Below, piece by piece: positions 1,305-17,367 of a stretch of 55,530 nt of DNA. This DNA comes from a virus (Duplodnaviria > Heunggongvirae > Uroviricota > Caudoviricetes), in the IMG/VR virus record IMGVR_UViG_2602041669_000011; one strand, given 5' to 3'. A model generated the notes under the pieces. That model saw nothing but the letters and a program-made list of their open reading frames with translations, did not search any database and was not told where the DNA came from. The position numbers were made by a program, and so were the translations under genes. Position 1 is the first letter of the stretch. Every line of letters begins with the position of its first letter.

Positions 1305-4300
1305 TTATGCGTATTGTTGGATGACGGCCAGAACGTCCGCCACGTTGTGTTTTGTCTCGATAATCCACCAGTTACCCGGGAAATCGCTGTTCTTCGCCTT
1401 CGCTGGCAGCCAGCGAGCGCCGAATTTCGCCTTGATTGCGTCTTTCGCACGGAAAAGAACGCCTTTCATGCCTGAGGCTTCCTGAAGCCCAAATACCTCG
1501 CCAGCGGCGAATTTTGGTGCGTACATCATCTTCAGGTCGGCGGTGGATACGCGATAATTCAGACCAAGAGACTGAGCTATGCTGGTGGCATCACCCTGTA
1601 TTGATGATAACTCTTCTTGTTTCTCGTTTCTGGCGGCAATCTCTTCCTCCGTGATGTTGCCAAGGGCCAGGTTTATCCGATCAGCGTCGGCCTGTTTCTC
1701 TTCATCGGTGCGCCCGGCAAGAACCGTGTTAATTCTCTGCAATATCTCCACATGATTCTTGCGCATGCTGAGCAATTCCGGCGTAACCTCGTTAAGATCC
1801 ACCAGCCCAAGGATGGCAAGGTCGGAAAACATTGATACCAGGTTGTAGGTCATGCGATAGCTGAGTTGACCATAGGCTGATGGCAACTGCACCGCATCCA
1901 TTTTATAGGCATCCATAAATTTAGAGCCGTCGTTTACGACATCCGCAATTGCCGGTGTGATTTTTCCTGTGGTGGCGGCCTCCCTGATTGCTGTTACCCA
2001 CGATTGAGTCAGCGCGGAAACTGCATGATTCAGATTGGCTTTGCGTTCTGCTGCAATGCGCGCGCTTGCAGCGTCCATTGACTGTTTGATCTCGTCTTTA
2101 TTGCTGTAAATGCCAATGGTGCCAAACTGTGCTGTGGTGATCTCATAATCTGACGCCCGGAACTCATTGGTACCGAAAATGGCATTGGTGACTTCAAGTT
2201 CAGAATCCCCGTTACGAGTAGCCCCCTGGCTTGTTTTTTCCGGCATTCTGGCGATCGCATCCGCTATTTTCTCCTGAATTGCTTCAGGGGATAGCGTATC
2301 TCCGTATGACGCGATTACATCGCCATAATTGGAGCCAAACAGTTCAACCAGGAATGTTTCTGCCGAACGGATCTGGCGGTTATTCCCTTCCGACATCATA
2401 CCAAGCACCCATTTTGCAATTGACGACTTCAGCGCGCCGTCACGGCGATCCGGGTAAACCGCATGCTTCAGTGGGTCCGTATAGGTACCAACAAAATCGA
2501 TGCTATAGCCTGACTCTGTAGTCTGAACGCCGTATGAGTCAGTGATTTTGATCATGCCGCGCTGCTGGAAACGGTAGAAATCGTCACAGGAAATGATGTC
2601 GTTAATCCCGGCGATGGAGACGCCACCACTGATTTTCTGCATAACAGCATCTTCATCGGGAGTTACATCAACCTGTTTATCCAGCGTCTTCACATCCCAG
2701 TTACCCGATTTGGTACCTTTGAAGGTAAAGATAATCTCCACGTCTGCGCGCTGGCTGTCGAAGTCCAGCGACTTAATGCGAACGATATCACCGGCACAAT
2801 CGTAGTATTGGCCTACACGCCATGAGCGATCGCCGATAACAAGGAACTCACTCGCATGGTTAACCAGGTCAGGATCAACATCCAGAATGCCTTTATTTAT
2901 TGCATCCTCCACCAGCGGGCGCAGGCGTTTGATATCCGTCGCGGCCTTCTGAGTACGGTTCAATAATTTCTCATAGCGGGAGATGGCTTGAGAGATATTA
3001 GCCTTGCGCTGAATGGCGCTTTTCAACGACGCGCGATACTGTGCTAACAACGTACGGTCTGTGTGATGGACGCTACCCCAGCGGGCTTTCCAGTCTGCGT
3101 TATCAGCTGCTTTGGCCATTACCGCCTGTTTGAATTTAGCTACCTCGGCGGTGGTCTTTTCAAGTTCCGCTTTGCTTCGCTCCAATTCAGCGGTAAGTAC
3201 CTCCACATCCTCACCAGCTGCGTGCTGCGCCTTGATGTAGTTCTGAAGGTCGATAGTAGCCTGTTCTTTCTGGCGAGCGCGTTTCGCAGCTTTCGCCTTA
3301 TCCATTTGAACCTGCATCATTACCAGACGTTCGCCGTCATCCTTCGCGGTATACATCTGCATTTCGATCATGTCATTGGCGTCGGCGTTCTCCATTTCTG
3401 ACTTATCTGAACGGAGGATATCGGAGATCCAGCCTGCTTTACGCTTCAGCGTCTTCAGTCGGTATTCATCGAAAGACCCCTTGCCGCAGTAGTAGTGAAC
3501 GCGAACGCTTGCACGGTTGGAGCCAACTCGTGCACCGCGACCGTTACGTTGTGCGATACTGGCTGGTGTCCACGGCAACGTCAGGTGGTGGATATCCGTC
3601 GTTCCTCGATGCAGGTTGATACCCACCTCTGCCTTTTTGTTGCAGATGATGATCGGAGTCCGGCCCTCCTGGAAGTCGGCAGCAATCTTTTCCAGCCCAC
3701 CCAGCGACATTTCATTTTGCTGCGCGATATAGGCGTCATACAGAGCCATTTGCTCGTTGTATTTCGCTATCTGTGCATCTGTTGGTTCATCCGGTAGCTC
3801 TTTCGGCGGTTTAACCGCTTTCAGTTTCTTACCGGTTTTACCTGCCTCGGCAACCGTCTGAGCATTCAGGATCCCCACCTTTGAAGGTTCAAGGTTAAGA
3901 GCATTGCAGATAATGCGCTTGAGCTTCTGGTGTTGCGTTTTTTCATCGGTGAAGATGATTTGCTTACCTTCCGGGAAAAACTCCTTCAGCGTGGCAATCA
4001 GCTTCGCGTATTTGGGCGTAACGGGGTGAGTTACGGTCTGTTCGTCAATGCCAAACTTGGCCAGGCGCTTATTCACTTCCTGCTCAAATGCTTCCGGTAC
4101 CTGCAACTGAATAAACTCGCCCTTATCTATCAGGGAGTATTGCGATTGCTGCGTGATCGAATCATCACTGTCGTCGTCTTCGCTGGTGGCTTGTTTAGGC
4201 AAACTGTCCGCCAGCTGCTGCACCGCATCGGCGTACTCCGGCAGGAAACGATAGGTGATCCTGCGATAGTACAGGTCCATGTCAGTACATACGCGGTCCA

Positions 4301-7300
4301 TATCCCTGATTATTGAGAAGATCGGACGGGCTTTCTCGTGCTCAATCACGCCGTCTTCATTGACCGAGGTCGTTACGCCATTGTTGGCTTTGGCTGCCGC
4401 TTCCGCCTGCTGACGCAATTCTTCATACGCCGCCAGTTGTTCTTCCGTAAGTGGTGCATCCTGCTGGTGTTCGTCCAGTTCCGGGATCTCCACGGTATCC
4501 TTAACGTCTTCCGCCGTTTTAAGCGTTGTCCAGCGATGGAATATGCCGCGCAGCGCATCAAGGTTTTCAAAGCCCACCAGCGCCATTTTTTCTTCAACTT
4601 CACCGCTGATTTTCTGTACCGTTTCCAGCCTGGTCTTGCCGAAGAATTTAACGAAGTCATCAGGACCGTAGATCCCCATCTTCTGCCAGTATTCCTTCGG
4701 CAGCACATGAGAAAGCATGTTGTATGCATCGATCGGGGTGTTAACGACTGGCGTTGCAGTCAGGAGAACCGGTCCGCGCCCACCATTCTTTTTCATCAGG
4801 TACGCGTTTTTAATTGCCATATCCCGCGCCGATTGCGCCACCGCGCTGGTGGGCAGATAGGCCAGTTGTGACGCTTCGCGACCATTTTTATAGCTATTGC
4901 GGTAGTTGTGACCTTCGTCAGCGATCACACTATCGAAGCCCATATCCTCAAAGTACGGATACTTCTCTGCTTTTTCGGTGCCGGTATCTGAATACTCCGA
5001 CAATACCCGGCGACGCGCGGCCTCTTTGCGGTGGGAGTCGGAGTCCATTGCGCTGGCTACGCGCCCGGCGGCAACGAAGTCATAAAGCATATCCTGTGCA
5101 TGCTCATCTACGGTGTCATCACGTAGCGGAATGCGGGCGTATTGTTCTTTGGTAAACACGACTGCACGGTAATTTGAGTGCGGGATCGCGTTCATCCGCG
5201 CCGTGATAGTGGCTTCATCTGCCAGTTTTAGGGCATCGCGCATAACTGGAGTGCCATCAGTACCAAGAACAGGTTTACCGTTCTCATCGAGCACCGGCAC
5301 CTGGCGAATCTGATCGCCATCCATCAGCACATCAAGACCGACGAACAGGTAGTTACTGAATGCCTCTTCACTCAGGAATTCTTTTGCTTCGTAATACCAG
5401 TTTTCCAGCACTGATTTAGGCACTACATACGCAGTACGGGTGGAGCGACCGTTCTCATAGTTGAACGCCTCAAGCGCCAGCGCGGTCGTAGTTTTACCCA
5501 GCCCGGTGCCGAAGCCCAGGATGCCGCGCCCATCTTCGGACAGTCGGCGCACTTCGCTATTCTGGTAATCAAATGGCTGGCGCTTACCGCTTAATCCCTT
5601 CAACCCAAGCGGATCGCCAGAGTGTTCATACGGGATATTGCTATTGAACACATCGTTGTATTTGGCAACCAGTTCATCGTAGCGATCGTGCGTCTTGATC
5701 CACTTATTGAACTGGTCCTCAAGCAGTGCCATCTGCTCGCGGTAGCCGTTCGCCGTCGCGCTATCTTTGCCACCGATACGCGCACCATTGAGATACTTTT
5801 CCAGCTGTGCCGGGAACCCGGTCGCGTTTTCACCTGATTTACGGTCCCACTCGTAGCGGATCTCGCCTGTTTCTTTATCCTTGCGCTGGACGACACCGTA
5901 TCGGTGCCCGACGAACAGGCCATCACCACCGTGATAGGTGTCAGAAACCATTTCGTCGCCTTCCAGCTGCACTGACTGCACATAGCGCAGATCCGGATAG
6001 CCGTTTTCCTGCAAAAACTCCAGAATGACGGAACGGTCGAACCAACGGCTATTGAGCTTAAACCGGATATTCTCTGCTGGCGTCTTGATGCGCTTCTCTT
6101 CGATCGCTGCCAGCTGATTAAGGACGTTGTTCTTTACTGGACCGTCGGGGAGCGTGGCGAGGAATTCCTGTTTTGGAGCCACTATCTCGTTAATGTCGCC
6201 GCTGGTGGCGCGGGCGAACGGAACAATCCCGCCATACGGTGAAACCGCAATACCAGGAGTGCTGGCCAATAAATTAAGCAACTCTTCATCACTGGCTGGC
6301 AATTCGCCGGTAAACGCAAGGCGGAAATCATCGAGCTGGATTGGATCGCGGGTAAGATCGCTATAGAGATAACGCAGGGTGTCCTGATAGCTGGTGGAGT
6401 CATAACTGGCGCTGGAATCATGCGTAACCAGCTTTCCTGTCAGCTCGTCAGAAATAGTGCCATCCAGCTTAATTGCACCACGGAAAGCAAACCAGGCGCG
6501 CGCACCGCTTCCCGATAATTTAGCTATCGGACCGCGACCAGGGTTACCAAAACGGTCAATCTCTGCCTGCAAACGGGATACCAGAGAAAGGCGCTGCTGT
6601 TCGATTTGTTCAGCACTATGCCCGGCGGCCTTCATATCCTGATATTCAATTAACATCCGGCCAATCATCGCCCCACGATACAAGCGTTCACGGTATTTTT
6701 CAGGCTGGCTGTTAATCCAGTCCACCAGCTGCACCATATCGTCGCTGATTGATGTGGTGTACTTATCGCGGACATTTGCCATCTGGGTAAATGTCATACC
6801 GAGACGGCCTTCTGTTGTAGTCAGGTTACGCTGAAGAGCCTCCCAGCTATCCGCGCCATAACTGGCAGCATCAATTTTAAGTTCCTTCCCGGCATCAGCT
6901 TCAATCCAGCGACCACCAGCATATTTTTGCCATACGCCATTAATCAGGCGCATTTCCCCTTCACCAACAACGTCTGCGGTCAGTGACGGTTCAGCCATAT
7001 CGAGCAAAGACCAGTCGATACGGCTTTCGAAACGATGAATCAGCTTCGCTTTAAGAGCCTGGTTATCAATCTGACCGTCGGCACGAACCTCAATACGCCC
7101 CTGGAAGCCCTTTTCCTGGGTGCCATGAACAAACCGGCGGCCATCCTTTTCAAACCACTTGCCAGAAATAAACGTTGGCCAAAGCACATTTGCCGATTCA
7201 AGAGTGCTTTCATCCACCAGGGGGATTTTCTCAGCCATCTCTGCCGGATGTTTGCGCATCAGCACCACATCAACGACTGTACTGGTCCCGTTTGCGTCAA

Positions 7301-11718: not shown

Positions 11719-11851
11719 AAAGACCTCATAAGCGAATTTTTTACGCTCCAGGACAAACACCCATTCACAGCCAATACCGACTGACTCGATCCCTTTAGAA
11801 GGCACAGGATAATGCAAATCACTTGTTAGCTACGTTTCAAAGATATACATT

Positions 11852-11868
11852 ATTGCTCTAATTAATTT
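11852..11868 (+). promoter_or_regulatory. C1 repressor operator-like box (ATTGCTCTAATTAATTT)
   Basis: 16/17 match to the P1 C1 operator consensus ATTGCTCTAATAAATTT as I recall it; about 20 bp upstream of ssb. Confidence 0.55.
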
Positions 11869-11887
11869 ATTTTATTAGGTAAGATAA

Positions 11888-12376
11888 GTGGCACAACGCG
11901 GTGTAAACAAAGTCATCCTGATTGGTACTCTGGGGCAAGACCCGGAGATCAGGTATATACCAAATGGCGGAGCGGTCGGAAGACTCAGCATCGCAACGAA
12001 TGAATCATGGCGCGACAAGCAAACGGGCCAACAGAAAGAGCAAACAGAATGGCATAAAGTCGTTTTGTTCGGAAAACTTGCTGAAATTGCGAGTGAGTAT
12101 TTACGAAAAGGTTCTCAGGTCTACATCGAAGGGAAACTTAAAACCCGTAAGTGGACAGATGACGCCGGTGTAGAACGTTACACGACGGAAATTATCGTCA
12201 GCCAGGGCGGCACCATGCAAATGATCGGCGCTCGCCGTGACGATTCACAGTCCTCAAATGGCTGGGGGCAATCAAACCAACCTCAAAACCACCAGCAATA
12301 CAGTGGTGGCGGTAAACCTCAGAGCAACGCCAATAACGAACCTCCAATGGACTTTGACGACGATATTCCGTTTTGA
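11888..12376 (+). CDS. ssb: Single-stranded DNA-binding protein
   Basis: GTG start; OB-fold SSB sequence with Gly/Gln-rich linker and acidic DFDDDIPF C-terminal tail. Confidence 0.95.
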
Positions 12377-12573
12377 ATGTGTAAAAAACGACTGAAAGAA
12401 AAGCGGTGGTCCAGACGCCGACAAAAGCACGAACTCGCAAACAAACGCCAAAGTTGGCAATGGCACGCGCTTTTCACGAAAAGAACACCCCGAGATATTG
12501 CGTTCGCTGGTGGGAAAACATTCCTGACCCACCTGAAGGCGCAATACATCAGGTTTTAAGCAGAGGAAAGACT

Positions 12574-13251
12574 ATGAATAACATGACAACGAAAGAGCTT
12601 TTGACGGCACTTCCAAAATACAAAAGCCATAAAACAGTTCGCGCCTCAAAAATCAAAGATATCGAAATTATCGCCCTAATGGATGTGGTCCTTTTTTGCA
12701 ACATCGAAGTCGTTGAGCCAGAAGGGGTAAAAGTCCATGTTGATAAAATATTTTTGCAAAAACACCGACCAGAAATTGGCGGATATCTGGTCGCTTATGA
12801 GGACGGATCTCTGTCCTATTCACCAGAAAAAACATTTGAAGAAGGCTTTAGTCGGACTAACGACTTCTTCGAAAATGGGGTATCGCTCAGCATTGAAGGT
12901 CACAATGGGGTGACATTCATTACAGCCAGGGACGTAACTATTTCTGCTGGCGGTATCGCTACTCTACAAGAAGAAATCGACCTTGAAGCAGCCGACTTTT
13001 CTGACGCGCTGATGTGGCTGAAGGATGGCAAGAAAGTTGCCCGACGCGGGTGGAACGGCGAAAACCAATTCTGCTGGCTGGTTCCTGAAGGACAGTACCC
13101 GGCACGAATGGAAGCCATTAAGGGATATTTCCCCGGCGACCTCGTTCCGTATGGTGCTTATTTCGCCTTAAAAAATGCACAAGGTGTAGTTGTTCCGTGG
13201 GTTCCTTCTGTAGGCGACTTACTGGCATGTGACTGGTTTGTAGTGGAGTGA
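12574..13251 (+). CDS. Two-domain protein with C-terminal DUF2829-like (Tad2-like) domain
   Basis: ATG at 12574 preceded by GAGGAAAG; C-terminal ~80 aa (ALMWLKDGKKVARRGWNGENQFCWLV...PWVPSVGDLLACDWFVVE) matches the GW/W/DW pattern I recall for DUF2829; the upstream part of the 281-aa ORF has no RBS. Confidence 0.55.
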   Translation: MNNMTTKELLTALPKYKSHKTVRASKIKDIEIIALMDVVLFCNIEVVEPEGVKVHVDKIFLQKHRPEIGGYLVAYEDGSLSYSPEKTFEEGFSRTNDFFENGVSLSIEGHNGVTFITARDVTISAGGIATLQEEIDLEAADFSDALMWLKDGKKVARRGWNGENQFCWLVPEGQYPARMEAIKGYFPGDLVPYGAYFALKNAQGVVVPWVPSVGDLLACDWFVVE

Positions 13252-13257
13252 TTTAAC

Positions 13258-14046
13258 GTGGAAAATACTAAAGCAATTCAATACCGCCTGCGTAATGGTC
13301 AGAGTGTCGAAGTGACCATCAATAATGATGGTGTGCCTGGCGAAAAGGTTTCGATCTCTGATCTGGCTATCGAAAAAACCATCATGTGCCACCTTGGCTT
13401 TACTGAAGAAGTGAGCAAAAAGCATGGTGTAGCTATCTGGCGCACAATGGATACTGGAATGCGCAGATTCATTACTGCTCGTACCCCTGGTATGACCATG
13501 ATGGACCTCATGCAGATTGCGCCGCTGTTTGAGTGTGAACCTCTGGATGTATTCAGTAATCCAGTTATCTGCCAGCAGTTATATGGTGAGATGAAACTCG
13601 CGGTTACCCCCATTGTGCTGCATGAAGGATCGCTTGCTGGCGTATGGAAAGTAGAGCGAATTTCAAGCTACATGCCCTTCCACATCCATGTCAACGGCGT
13701 AATCGCAGGTGAAAATCAACCTGTTTCAGTTACAAAGTCAGACCTCAAGCGCGCAATTCTTGAAGCAAGTTGTCGAGTTATCGGCCTGGGCAAACAGTCT
13801 TATGTTTCCTTCCCGGCTGGCCCTGAAGGCCCGGCAGAAATTCTGATTATGGATGCCGATCTGCTCTGGCAAATACAGTTTCTGATTGGCAAAAGCATCA
13901 TCCGCGCTGAAGAACTCGATCAGTACATTACCTGCACGATGACGGATGAAGTCAAAAGTGTGGCTATATCCAATGCCCGGAACCTATGTCGTGCTGCATT
14001 AACAGAACTGCAAGAAAACACCACGGAAGAAGTGGAAAGCGATTAA
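13258..14046 (+). CDS. Hypothetical protein (262 aa)
   Basis: GTG-initiated ORF directly after the preceding gene, ending at a convergent terminator; no recognisable motif. Confidence 0.5.
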   Translation: MENTKAIQYRLRNGQSVEVTINNDGVPGEKVSISDLAIEKTIMCHLGFTEEVSKKHGVAIWRTMDTGMRRFITARTPGMTMMDLMQIAPLFECEPLDVFSNPVICQQLYGEMKLAVTPIVLHEGSLAGVWKVERISSYMPFHIHVNGVIAGENQPVSVTKSDLKRAILEASCRVIGLGKQSYVSFPAGPEGPAEILIMDADLLWQIQFLIGKSIIRAEELDQYITCTMTDEVKSVAISNARNLCRAALTELQENTTEEVESD

Positions 14047-14077
14047 AAAAAATCCCGCCGATTGGCGGGATTTCTTC
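14045..14077. terminator. Bidirectional rho-independent terminator between convergent genes
   Basis: atcccgcc-gatt-ggcgggat hairpin flanked by an A-run upstream and a T-run downstream. Confidence 0.6.
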
Positions 14078-14390
14078 AATATACGATCTGGTCTACATGA
14101 TCCCCAAAATCATCGTCATCATCGTCGTCCTCATCGCCACCCTCTACTGCTGGCCAATCAACAAACCAGCCAGCGTAAAGATGCAGCGTTCGGAGAACAT
14201 CACTTGCGGGAGCATCAAGGGTGTTAACGAATCCCATATAGCTATTGGGATTTGCCCCAGCTATGGCTTCAGCGATCATGTCCTCGGTAATGTCACCGGA
14301 GATAATGCTTAAACGCCCGGAAACTTCTTCATTATCATCAAATTCGATAATGGCATCTCCGCCTAATGGCGCTGCGATTTTAATCTGCAT
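14076..14390 (-). CDS. iddB: Small acidic protein (104 aa), IddB-like
   Basis: Overlaps the ddrB stop; poly-Asp C-terminus (GGDEDDDDDDDFGDH); name by position in the dar/ddr operon. Confidence 0.4.
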   Translation of the reverse strand: MQIKIAAPLGGDAIIEFDDNEEVSGRLSIISGDITEDMIAEAIAGANPNSYMGFVNTLDAPASDVLRTLHLYAGWFVDWPAVEGGDEDDDDDDDFGDHVDQIVY

Positions 14391-17367
14391 TATTTAGCTC
14401 CTTTGCCACACCTAATAACAGTTCCAGCAATCCGTCACCATTCATCAGTGATGCGGCAGCGGCCTCTTTGTCATGATACAACTGAAGAGCCATAGAGAAT
14501 ACTTCCGTTGCTGACGTTTTGGAAATAGTCGGTGATTTCTGCCGAATTTTCCCGGAATTACTTACTGAGGCTGGCGGGTATACCTTCGCCATATAAATAT
14601 TACTCAATCGAGATCTGAAGCACCATTCAGGCTTGCCACGCCCACCGATATTGACGAATGATGGCTTATCCCCTTCAACATTGGCCTTCAGGAATGACCG
14701 GGCTTTCTCTAACAAACCAGGGTTACTGTACTCAAGATGATGACCCAGCTCGTGCCACAGTGCACTTGCATTTTTATCGTTCAAATTGACAGCAACAACA
14801 CCATTTAGATTTGCATATGCCCTTCCCTGGTGGTGAACTACCTTTGATAAGGTCGATATTTTCCCGCCGGTCAGGCGATAAATATCAGCAAGTTCCTTGC
14901 GCAGGTCTATCCCACCATTCTGTCCAGCGCGGGCTTCTTCCACTTCTTCTGTGATAAAAGAGTCGGCCCACTCAAGAGCTTTTTCTTCAGATACGGATGA
15001 GTTTGCGATCGCACTGTTCATGGCAGATAACACTTTCTCGTGGACCGAACCCATACTTCGCTGATTCATTTGCCAGCGTGTCTGCGGGTTATATGAGAAT
15101 CGCTTAAGTAGTTGGTCAAGCTGCTCAAGTTCTTCTTCACTGACATACTTTTTAGCCTCACCAATAATGCCAGGGAGAATATTGCCGTTAGGATTAAACG
15201 CTCGCGAAAGGAAGAGTTTCAGCGCCCCCATGCCCTCCGATGCTTCTATATCACCAATAACCCGGTTAACAATGGCCGCACTCTTCGGATTAGCATCCGC
15301 CAACGCTCTGGCTACGATTTGCAGGGACGATACGACCTCACGCTGCATATCAGTCCTGATCTCATCAATAAACTCTGGCGTTATGCCGTGATCTTTAAGG
15401 ATATCCCGGCCTTCCTCCGTTACCCCATCGATATCACCGACATGTTTATTAACACGACTTTGCAATGCCTTAAATGCCTTCAGAATTCCACGGGCATCAT
15501 CCGCTTTACTAACGGCCTTCCTGAATGCTGGCAAGAAGTCTGAGTTAACCTCATTTTGTTGATCGGCCCACTGAATGGAGGCTTCCTTCATCTCGTCCAG
15601 AGTCAGATCACCCAACGCGGTATGGTCTGTGAATATGAGCGATAACCTCTGAACCATTTCTGCCAATGGTGATGCCGAATGCGCCGCGCTAAGGAATGCT
15701 TTCACCCTGGTTGGGCGAATGGAAAACCAGTCAATAGCTGGTGGCATATCTCCGTTTTTTATCGCCTGCGCTATCTCGTCAAAGCCATCGCGCCCAAGGG
15801 AGGATGCGTGATTTAACAAGCCGCGAAGTAACGAATTGCTGATACCGAATAATCGGCACCATTTTTTCACGTCGGCAACAGGCATTCGAACAAAATGCGC
15901 AAGCACTTGTACAAGCTGTTCATCCTGGGGATCTGTGCGGGAAAGCAGCCTGATCAGATGAATAATGTCTTTGATGCCGGATGCCCGATGTAATAGCAAA
16001 CTGGTATACGGAGCAACACCGTTGTAACTACCGCCGGAAACGGACTCGAAAAGACCGCCGGATATCCCTTGCATGCCTTCGTTTTCCAGTTCCTGAGACA
16101 CCTGGCGAAGGATATCCTGTAACGACACATCGCCGCCGCCAAACATATCCCCCAGCGCCTGGCCCTGGTGCTGTAACTCATCATTGATACGTTGCGCCAT
16201 CAACTTAAAGGCGGTGGCCATACGCTTCGCGCTACGGTTATTCGCGACGATGAACAACGCGAGTGCTTTCACTTCCGGGGCCGTTTCGCTGAACATATCC
16301 CCCTGAGCAATAACATCGGTAATATGTTGGCCTGACTCCTTCGATTGCCTTACCAGGTCTACCGCATCTTTCAATGCCGCCAGCGCCTTTTTATCGAGGC
16401 TATCCGCTGTTTCAATACCATCAACAATGGTTGTCACAGCCTGCTTGTGCGCTTCTCCTGATAAAGCCTGCATCTGGACAAAATCATTGGCTGCCGCATT
16501 AAGCGCCGTCAGAACATTACGCATATCCGGATCAGGTTCTTCTGCAACCATCCTTACCAGGCGCGCATCCTTATATGCCTTGGCAAAGATCGCGTTTTGT
16601 ATACGGTCAACAAGTTGCCGTGTTGGTCGCCCATCTTCAGTTACAAGGCCAGCCGCCTGTGTGGCACCAACTTGCGTCATAAATCCGCGAATAAACGCGT
16701 CATTACTGCGGCTAAGCAGATCTCCGCTTTCTGACGGGTTAAAAAGCGCCATCATCGCCGGTGTTATGCTGTCGGCATCAACAAAAGCCTTTTCACTGGC
16801 TGCCATTTCCTGGAGATCAGAAATATTTGAGTCCTTGGCAAACTGAACACGGTCAACCGTCGTTAACCGGCGGCGCACCAGTACCGGAGCCGTCATTGAT
16901 TCAACCTTTTCAGGCCGTATGCCGAATTCGGTCGCATGTTCAATCAGGTACTCCCGATACCGATCCGCATTACCGTCCTGATAGGCTTTAATGATCCCCA
17001 TGGTCCGCCCATTACCTGACTCAACGGCATTGTCCTCACCAATTATTGGCGCGCCATGGCTGGATAAACCGGAATCGGTAAGCTGGGCAGGACGCAAATC
17101 CTTGGATATCTGGTTGACCTGAAGAAGGCTGGATGCGCGGGTCCGGTCGCGCGGCTGAAGTTCCTGGGGATAGTCTGGATTAATTTTCCCATCCAGAGTA
17201 TTGGATACCAAAAGAGCTGAGGCATCGACGATATCAAACGCTGTTTTTACCTCGTCTCCCTTCGCTGTCACCACATACGAAACCCGCCCATAATCGGGCA
17301 GGTTCTTTAGCAGCTCGATCAGCGTTTCTATGCTGGTGGCCATTACCACCTGATCGCTTAAGCTCAT
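14380..17367 (-). CDS. ddrB: DdrB-like virion anti-restriction/internal protein (995 aa)
   Basis: 995-aa ORF co-oriented and contiguous with ddrA/darA/hdf; assignment by size and position. Confidence 0.55.
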   Translation of the reverse strand: MSLSDQVVMATSIETLIELLKNLPDYGRVSYVVTAKGDEVKTAFDIVDASALLVSNTLDGKINPDYPQELQPRDRTRASSLLQVNQISKDLRPAQLTDSGLSSHGAPIIGEDNAVESGNGRTMGIIKAYQDGNADRYREYLIEHATEFGIRPEKVESMTAPVLVRRRLTTVDRVQFAKDSNISDLQEMAASEKAFVDADSITPAMMALFNPSESGDLLSRSNDAFIRGFMTQVGATQAAGLVTEDGRPTRQLVDRIQNAIFAKAYKDARLVRMVAEEPDPDMRNVLTALNAAANDFVQMQALSGEAHKQAVTTIVDGIETADSLDKKALAALKDAVDLVRQSKESGQHITDVIAQGDMFSETAPEVKALALFIVANNRSAKRMATAFKLMAQRINDELQHQGQALGDMFGGGDVSLQDILRQVSQELENEGMQGISGGLFESVSGGSYNGVAPYTSLLLHRASGIKDIIHLIRLLSRTDPQDEQLVQVLAHFVRMPVADVKKWCRLFGISNSLLRGLLNHASSLGRDGFDEIAQAIKNGDMPPAIDWFSIRPTRVKAFLSAAHSASPLAEMVQRLSLIFTDHTALGDLTLDEMKEASIQWADQQNEVNSDFLPAFRKAVSKADDARGILKAFKALQSRVNKHVGDIDGVTEEGRDILKDHGITPEFIDEIRTDMQREVVSSLQIVARALADANPKSAAIVNRVIGDIEASEGMGALKLFLSRAFNPNGNILPGIIGEAKKYVSEEELEQLDQLLKRFSYNPQTRWQMNQRSMGSVHEKVLSAMNSAIANSSVSEEKALEWADSFITEEVEEARAGQNGGIDLRKELADIYRLTGGKISTLSKVVHHQGRAYANLNGVVAVNLNDKNASALWHELGHHLEYSNPGLLEKARSFLKANVEGDKPSFVNIGGRGKPEWCFRSRLSNIYMAKVYPPASVSNSGKIRQKSPTISKTSATEVFSMALQLYHDKEAAAASLMNGDGLLELLLGVAKELNNAD

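Follow-up and report, generated by a model that had tools for sequence, protein, structure and literature searches.

The window analysed here is a stretch of 55,530 nucleotides from a Caudoviricetes genome (IMG/VR record IMGVR_UViG_2602041669_000011) and represents an SJ46-like relative of phage P1. Positions 11800-14400 share 98.3% identity with Salmonella phage SJ46 and 98% with Escherichia phage vB_EcoM-Ro157c2YLVW, and are only partly common to P1. This segment contains a gene for a Tad2-like protein together with the following features.

11852 to 11868, plus strand: C1 operator Ossb, overlapping the ssb promoters; ATTGCTCTAATTAATTT, one mismatch to the C1 operator consensus
11888 to 12376, plus strand: ssb, first gene of the putative operon; Pfam SSB E 7e-40; orthologue of P1 ssb
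12377 to 12573, plus strand: leader of 197 nt from ssb to the Tad2-like gene, conserved in P1 and there located before isaA (alignment of the window, P1 and SJ46)
12574 to 13251, plus strand: Tad2-like gene, 225 aa and stop, comprising OB module, linker and Tad2 domain; full-length match to PHROG 872, E 1.8e-59
12607 to 12861, plus strand: predicted N-terminal OB-fold module (aa 12-96), Dec-like, belonging to a large uncharacterised family of small phage proteins
12862 to 12981, plus strand: linker (aa 97-136), predicted beta-rich, pLDDT 39-55, variable or absent in relatives
12982 to 13248, plus strand: Tad2 domain (PF11195; aa 137-225), with conserved pocket residues W160, N161, W209, S212 and D215
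13258 to 14046, plus strand: isaA-like gene, 262 aa, matching P1 IsaA; PHROG 2326, E 3.7e-150; function unknown
14045 to 14077, both strands: bidirectional intrinsic terminator, A8-TCCCGCC-GATT-GGCGGGA-TTTCTT, with a 7-bp GC-rich stem and a T-rich tail

The open reading frame originally predicted at 12574-13251 is real: it lies on the plus strand, encodes 225 residues followed by a stop, and has exactly the C-terminal sequence quoted for it earlier. An AGGA ribosome-binding site is found 6 nt 5' of its ATG, and comparison of homologues places the start of all family members at the equivalent position. The product is identical or near-identical to the 225-aa form represented by cluster P0001 (n=453 member sequences), which NCBI labels 'DUF2829 domain-containing protein'. 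A longer reading frame beginning at a GTG (12406; 281 aa), as annotated in SJ46, was rejected. Its first 56 codons (168 nt) lie in the leader shared with P1, where that leader is upstream of isaA, which makes the extension an artefact of annotation. P1 isaA (GTG, 320 aa; 3607-4569) and SJ46 gp048 (281 aa; 3607-4452) have annotated starts that take in the same shared leader, and both are probably about 56 codons too long.

The operator and promoter region 5' of ssb matches the Ossb/P1ssb/P2ssb region annotated in P1 letter for letter, and Ossb is the probable control point of the operon that holds the Tad2-like gene. The promoter assignment rests on this identity with annotated P1 promoters, since a sigma-70 scan found no promoter-like site. 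Four more C1-operator-like sites (8002, 36754, 38492 and 53944; 1-3 mismatches) bring the total to five, against 0.3 expected by chance. A search of the conserved leader for an RNA element gave no Rfam match and a fold z-score of only -1.9. The leader is also traversed, in another frame, by a highly basic 60-codon ORF (12377-12559) whose ATG overlaps the ssb stop (TGAATG) and which is unannotated in P1 and SJ46. No terminator-like site was found on the plus strand before 14045. The terminator at 14045-14077, overlooked by a rule-based scan and read from the sequence, coincides with weak leader/terminator-type Rfam hits and marks off the ssb operon from hxr/ddrB, which converge on it. The Tad2-like gene is thus most likely part of a C1-repressed ssb/tad2-like/isaA-like operon that would be switched on early after infection or induction; we infer co-transcription with ssb and early timing from the P1 annotation. 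The gene had been described as lying between ssb and the dar/ddr genes, in an anti-defence neighbourhood adjoining the dar operon. Its position is as described, and anti-restriction genes do lie all around it, but the isaA-like gene and the terminator intervene, hxr/ddrB occupy the opposite strand, and the gene sits outside the anti-restriction transcription units, most likely within that of ssb. A 639-aa ORF on the hxr/ddrB strand and a 2,255-aa ORF upstream of the portal gene are candidates for DarA and DarB, with lengths that fit those P1 proteins.

Laboratory P1 is without the Tad2-like gene: relative to P1, the segment shows an exact insertion or deletion of some 690 bp, bounded by the ATG after the leader on one side and codon five of isaA on the other. 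The region is a rearrangement hotspot, with an IS1 just downstream of isaA in P1 and divergence of P7 right after ssb. In RCS47 a mobile element splits the Tad2-like gene at codon 152. In phage D6 the Tad2-like and isaA-like genes (L010, positions 2594-3817) are likewise neighbours, but they occupy quite another locus there, 3' of cre and of a gene for dUTPase. The pairing of the two genes suggests a mobile two-gene unit. Among complete E. coli genomes 213 of 5,426 (about 4%) carry the gene, almost always on plasmids some 90-100 kb in size. A 2025 preprint that applied DefenseFinder reported 'Tad2 AcrIIA7' in 56% of the phage-plasmids in the P1 group and in 93% of those in the D6 group. The Tad2-family gene of the window is therefore genuine and fills an accessory position in a P1-like phage. 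The Tad2 call itself was already known, DefenseFinder screens having reported Tad2 in P1/D6 phage-plasmids; unexplored ground lies chiefly in the OB module, but also in the loop alleles and the fusion of the domains.

The original prediction had assigned the C-terminus to DUF2829 and had named a Pfam profile search as the means of refuting this. That search assigns residues 141-224 to PF11195 (Tad2-like, formerly DUF2829) with E 1.6e-22, covering profile positions 2-73 of 73 with a score of 80.2 bits (gathering cutoff 25). The structural comparison proposed at the same time agrees: the AlphaFold model superposes on solved Tad2 structures, with a Foldseek probability of 1.00 to 9EIB, 8V3E, 8KBI, 8SME and 8WJD. 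Target-normalised TM values are 0.74-0.87 for ModTad2 (9EIB, 8V3E) and 0.60-0.81 for the other Tad2 structures. The full-length model has a mean pLDDT of 76.8, with the Tad2 part mostly at 85-93. Its predicted secondary structure elements (H142-150, E154-157, E166-170, E173-176, E190-193, E196-200, E206-208, H213-217 and E221-224) include all features of the Tad2 fold, namely the N-terminal helix, the antiparallel beta-sheet, the beta2-beta3 insertion and the short C-terminal helix. In a sequence search of the PDB the best match is again ModTad2 (9EIB/8V3E; E about 6e-20 to 6e-21), followed by HgmTad2/AcrIIA7 (E 4e-10), SPO1 Tad2 (E 7e-9) and SptTad2; in a second comparison these three gave E 1e-9 to 1e-11. 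Identity to ModTad2 is about 46-50% over 88 residues, against 33-35% for SPO1 Tad2, HgmTad2 and SptTad2. The beta2-beta3 insertion loop is as long as that of ModTad2 bar one 1-aa indel. By both identity and loop architecture, the Tad2 domain of the window is nearest to ModTad2.

Published ligand contacts include W25, N26, W73, S76 and D79 of SPO1 Tad2 and W21/N22, W87, S90 and D93 of HgmTad2, and these align to W160, N161, W209, S212 and D215 of the window protein. W160, W209 and D215 are invariant across the family alignment. Following the second tryptophan, the window protein has WVPSVGD and ModTad2 has WTPSVSD (shared WxPSV[S/G]D), versus SQTD in proteins that bind gcADPR/3'cADPR. On the adenine side the pocket is unlike that of all characterised Tad2 proteins, with G214 (versus S/T), V207 (versus A/H), Q203 (versus D) and N201 (versus T). 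The ligand is not readable by homology, because these adenine-side residues differ from every characterised Tad2. The PSV motif common to ModTad2 would favour conserved His-ADPR contacts, and the differences at G214, V207, Q203 and N201 make such conservation less certain.

ModTad2 (MoTad2) is the Tad2 protein of a Myroides odoratus prophage and has been solved both apo (8V3E) and with His-ADPR (9EIB). It blocks type II Thoeris, which signals through His-ADPR, but not type I (3'cADPR/gcADPR). A second pocket takes cUMP/cCMP, blocking Pycsar, including an E. coli system, and ModTad2 also binds 2'cADPR, through which type VI Thoeris signals; this type, too, is found in E. coli. In HgmTad2 and ModTad2 the second ligand pocket is built by the beta2-beta3 insertion loop. 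Other Tad2 proteins have 3'cADPR, N7-cADPR or cyclic dinucleotides as ligands, and most Tad2 homologues assayed to date act on immune signals. Ligand specificity thus appears plastic across the family, and His-ADPR for the window protein is therefore a best guess. The original prediction had pointed to gcADPR; the assignment to the Tad2 family stands, but the expected ligand is not simply gcADPR, because ModTad2, and not SPO1 Tad2, is the nearest relative to have been characterised, and ModTad2 fails against type I systems and takes His-ADPR.

Beyond the shared Pfam domain, the likeness to ModTad2, the top match in both sequence and structure, includes the equal length of the insertion loop, the WxPSVxD motif and a GWNG loop. 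ModTad2 is, however, a stand-alone protein of 89 aa from a Bacteroidota host, whereas the window protein has 136 extra N-terminal residues, is associated with Enterobacteria and differs at the four adenine-side positions. SPO1 Tad2 (Gp34.65) and HgmTad2/AcrIIA7 share the fold and the core ligand contacts but are more distant (33-35% identity) and have SQTD where the window protein has SVGD; both bind 3'cADPR, which ModTad2 does not. HgmTad2 further differs in a far longer insertion, which forms a cyclic-dinucleotide pocket. The fused sponges Tad2-Acb4 (Pasteurella phage Pm86) and Tad2-Sequestin (PF21825) likewise combine Tad2 with another small phage domain in a single chain. In the window protein, by contrast, the partner is an uncharacterised OB-fold module placed N-terminal to Tad2.

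Homologues of the window protein form a mosaic of an OB module, optional middle modules, the highly conserved junction IDLEAADFSDALMWLKEGK, Tad2 and sometimes a C-terminal PF21825 domain, and the family also holds OB-Tad2-PF21825 proteins and longer chains. In some P1-like elements a dUTPase-Tad2 fusion (P0056) replaces OB-Tad2, and in phage D6 a dUTPase gene is followed by one for a linker-Tad2 protein without the OB module. When larger relatives with middle modules (P0100, P0106) were compared with the PDB, only Tad2 and Dec were matched. One cluster (P0023; 306 aa, 5 member sequences) joins a tail-fibre repeat N-terminus (PF03406) to the middle part of the OB module and then Tad2, and arose either by recombination or as a chimera of assembly. 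Across 50 full-length representatives of P1-like clusters, helix alpha1 and the Tad2 core are almost invariant. Variation within the Tad2 domain peaks in the insertion loop (aa 171-190; window 13084-13143), and aa 31-40 of the OB module are equally variable. Three loop allele types occur among the P1-like clusters, ModTad2-like (17), long (9) and short (22), the short type also having EWKG in place of GWNG. This pattern of variation is consistent with selection on ligand range, and three loop alleles in near-identical Tad2 domains constitute a natural experiment on the evolution of ligand specificity.

The N-terminus of about 140 aa had been called unrecognised. This is correct insofar as Pfam and NCBIfam searches return no family and PHROGs 872, 11049, 9467 and 32732 all carry the label 'unknown function', but the region resolves into a predicted Dec-like OB fold and a linker of about 40 aa. 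Residues 12-96 are predicted confidently as a five-stranded barrel with helices, and the module modelled alone (79 sequences) reaches pLDDT 88.3 and pTM 0.79. Foldseek on the N-terminal module gave E 1.4e-3, and its sequence profile matches Dec (PDB 6E3C) with E 9.4e-5 and the aligned motif GGYL..Y..G.L.Y....FE..Y. Dec is the sole solved structure that is similar in both fold and sequence. By model and profile, the module is an OB fold most like the decoration protein Dec of phage L, with detectable sequence homology. Both have an OB fold with an extra beta0 strand and helices, 26-29% identity and a GGYL...Y..S...FE..Y motif, followed by a beta-rich segment; in Dec this C-terminal segment folds only in the trimer. 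Dec differs in being a late structural protein that trimerises via a 57-residue beta-helix stalk and binds capsids, whereas the OB module is apparently part of an early operon, usually stands alone at about 90 aa and is fused to sponges. The linker was considered as a Dec-like or VgrG-like beta-helix, and this found no support, the matches to VgrG/baseplate beta-helix repeats being non-significant (E 0.8-1.6). It is missing from many relatives and is kept in D6 orf114, which is without the OB module.

An exhaustive search of 1.84 billion representatives with the OB module returned 6,129 clusters at E <= 1e-3 and 4,106 at E <= 1e-10 (clusters at 50% identity), a family with no Pfam entry. In a profile search most members proved to be free-standing proteins, 80-100 aa long, encoded on phage and metagenome contigs (relatives P0121-P0382 and L003-L008). 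Some members (P0239, P0241, P0243) have two tandem OB copies. Stand-alone homologues are found among small early genes, beside DnaB, Dam and other methylases, and not among structural genes; that of SopranoGao adjoins transcriptional regulators. A Pfam scan of 84 longer OB representatives found known sponge families in 14 of 16 partner hits, as follows.

PF21825 Sequestin: 5
PF24729 Acb2/Tad1 hairpin: 4
PF13876 Acb4: 3
PF11195 Tad2: 2
DUF2158: 1
marginal repeat hit: 1

The OB module itself matches none of the sponge families Tad1, Tad2, Acb2, Acb4, Sequestin, Lockin and TadIV-1 (literature to April 2026). Sponge domains are often fused together, and Sequestin (PF21825) was found through such a sponge-sponge fusion pattern. 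The largest functional survey of sponges deliberately left out Tad2 proteins with a 6E3C-like (Dec-like) or PF21825 domain. Within the OB module H19, K20, I27, V73, Y75 and P84 are invariant, and K26, P66, G69, G70, Y71, D77, G78, Y79, S81, S83, F88, E89, G91 and Y92 nearly so. At two positions where tyrosine is found in 76 of 79 aligned sequences of the family, the window allele has S79 and F92, and any activity of its OB module may be weakened by these substitutions. The Dec-like OB module could conceivably be a further unrecognised phage anti-signalling family, either a sponge or a signal-inactivating protein, although the balance of probability is somewhat against it.

Three further accounts of the protein have to be weighed. 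In one, which extends and does not contradict the view of the protein as a Tad2 sponge, both halves bind immune signals, with the OB module binding or inactivating a second signal, so that one protein would act on two pathways. The Tad2-Acb4 and Tad2-Sequestin fusions provide a precedent, and the discovery of Sequestin followed this pattern. The predominance of sponge families among the partner hits argues for it, as do the usual occurrence of the OB module alone at 80-100 aa, the early-gene context of its homologues and its invariant or near-invariant basic, aromatic and other residues (H19, K20, K26, K63, H64, Y71, Y75, D77, Y79, Y92). The oligomeric states of the partners differ, however (dimer, tetramer, hexamer), which also fits a generic helper domain, and the window allele is without two near-invariant tyrosines; a double function of this kind is a tentative proposal with rather less than an even chance. 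The similarity to Dec suggests instead that the OB module might bind the capsid, as Dec does on phages L and P22, and carry Tad2 on the virion. Fold and sequence (29% identity; profile E 9.4e-5) speak for this, together with the common layout of an OB domain and a beta-rich C-terminal stalk and the faint beta-helix flavour of the linker. Yet the gene lies downstream of the C1-controlled ssb promoters and not in a late structural gene context, stand-alone OB homologues occur among replication and methylase genes, not structural ones, and many relatives are without the linker, whose beta-helix resemblance is non-significant. An external decoration protein would, moreover, stay outside the cell in which the signals are made. 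The P1 capsid requires no cement protein, though laboratory P1 is itself without the gene. A capsid-associated protein is accordingly very improbable.

The remaining account holds that the protein is no immune sponge at all, DUF2829 serving instead in nucleotide metabolism or replication with ssb and dUTPase, or as an anti-CRISPR in the manner proposed for AcrIIA7. In favour of it are the co-linearity of the gene with ssb, the fusion or adjacency of relatives to dUTPase (P0056; D6) and to MazG-like proteins, and the membership of AcrIIA7 in the family. The anti-CRISPR reading was rejected, as AcrIIA7/HgmTad2 gave no Cas9 inhibition on published retest. The activity of most assayed Tad2 homologues on immune signals, the conservation of the pocket residues and the dispensability of the gene, which is missing from P1, also count against this account, and a role outside immune signalling is unlikely, if slightly less so than one on the capsid.

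Taken together, profile, model and genomic setting indicate that the gene probably encodes an early-expressed Tad2-family sponge for TIR- or cyclase-derived immune signals. The analysis itself establishes which domains are present, their fold, the conserved pocket residues, the layout of the operon from sequence and from comparison with annotated P1, the accessory nature of the gene and its distribution. In the scheme proposed for this sponge we infer tetramer formation, ligand identity, immune inhibition and the role of the OB module. Loss of C1 repression on infection or induction would switch on the ssb operon, and the protein would be made early. Proteins of the Tad2 family are homotetramers with pockets at the protomer interfaces and with helix alpha1 as part of the tetramer interface, and the C-terminal domain would assemble in this family-typical way. 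The 136-aa N-terminal extension sits directly on helix alpha1, which was counted against the sponge reading. The tetramer would trap alarm molecules made by host TIR or cyclase immune proteins, and the effector would then never be activated. As the window domain is closest to ModTad2, the likeliest targets would be the ModTad2 set, with His-ADPR (type II Thoeris) first, followed by 2'cADPR (type VI) and cUMP/cCMP (Pycsar); 3'cADPR (type I Thoeris) would be a less likely target. The N-terminal OB module most likely would add a second anti-signalling function or otherwise serve the sponge, capsid decoration being an unlikely role for it.

Pathogenic and drug-resistant strains of E. coli, Shigella and Salmonella commonly carry P1-like phage-plasmids. 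If the protein is an early Thoeris/Pycsar sponge, it would help to explain how these elements become established in hosts with signalling-based immunity, and laboratory P1, which is without the gene, may be a poor model of such establishment. The protein provides a test case in a genetically tractable phage, for which P1 is a natural knock-in background. Should the OB module prove to be anti-signalling, the P1-like protein would be a two-headed inhibitor present in about 4% of sequenced E. coli, and Dec would have branched off as a structural protein from an anti-defence fold, unless descent ran the other way. An active OB module would also mean that the few known viral antagonists of immune signals are joined by a large new family, and would indicate that searches for fusions outside Pfam families still yield new antagonists.
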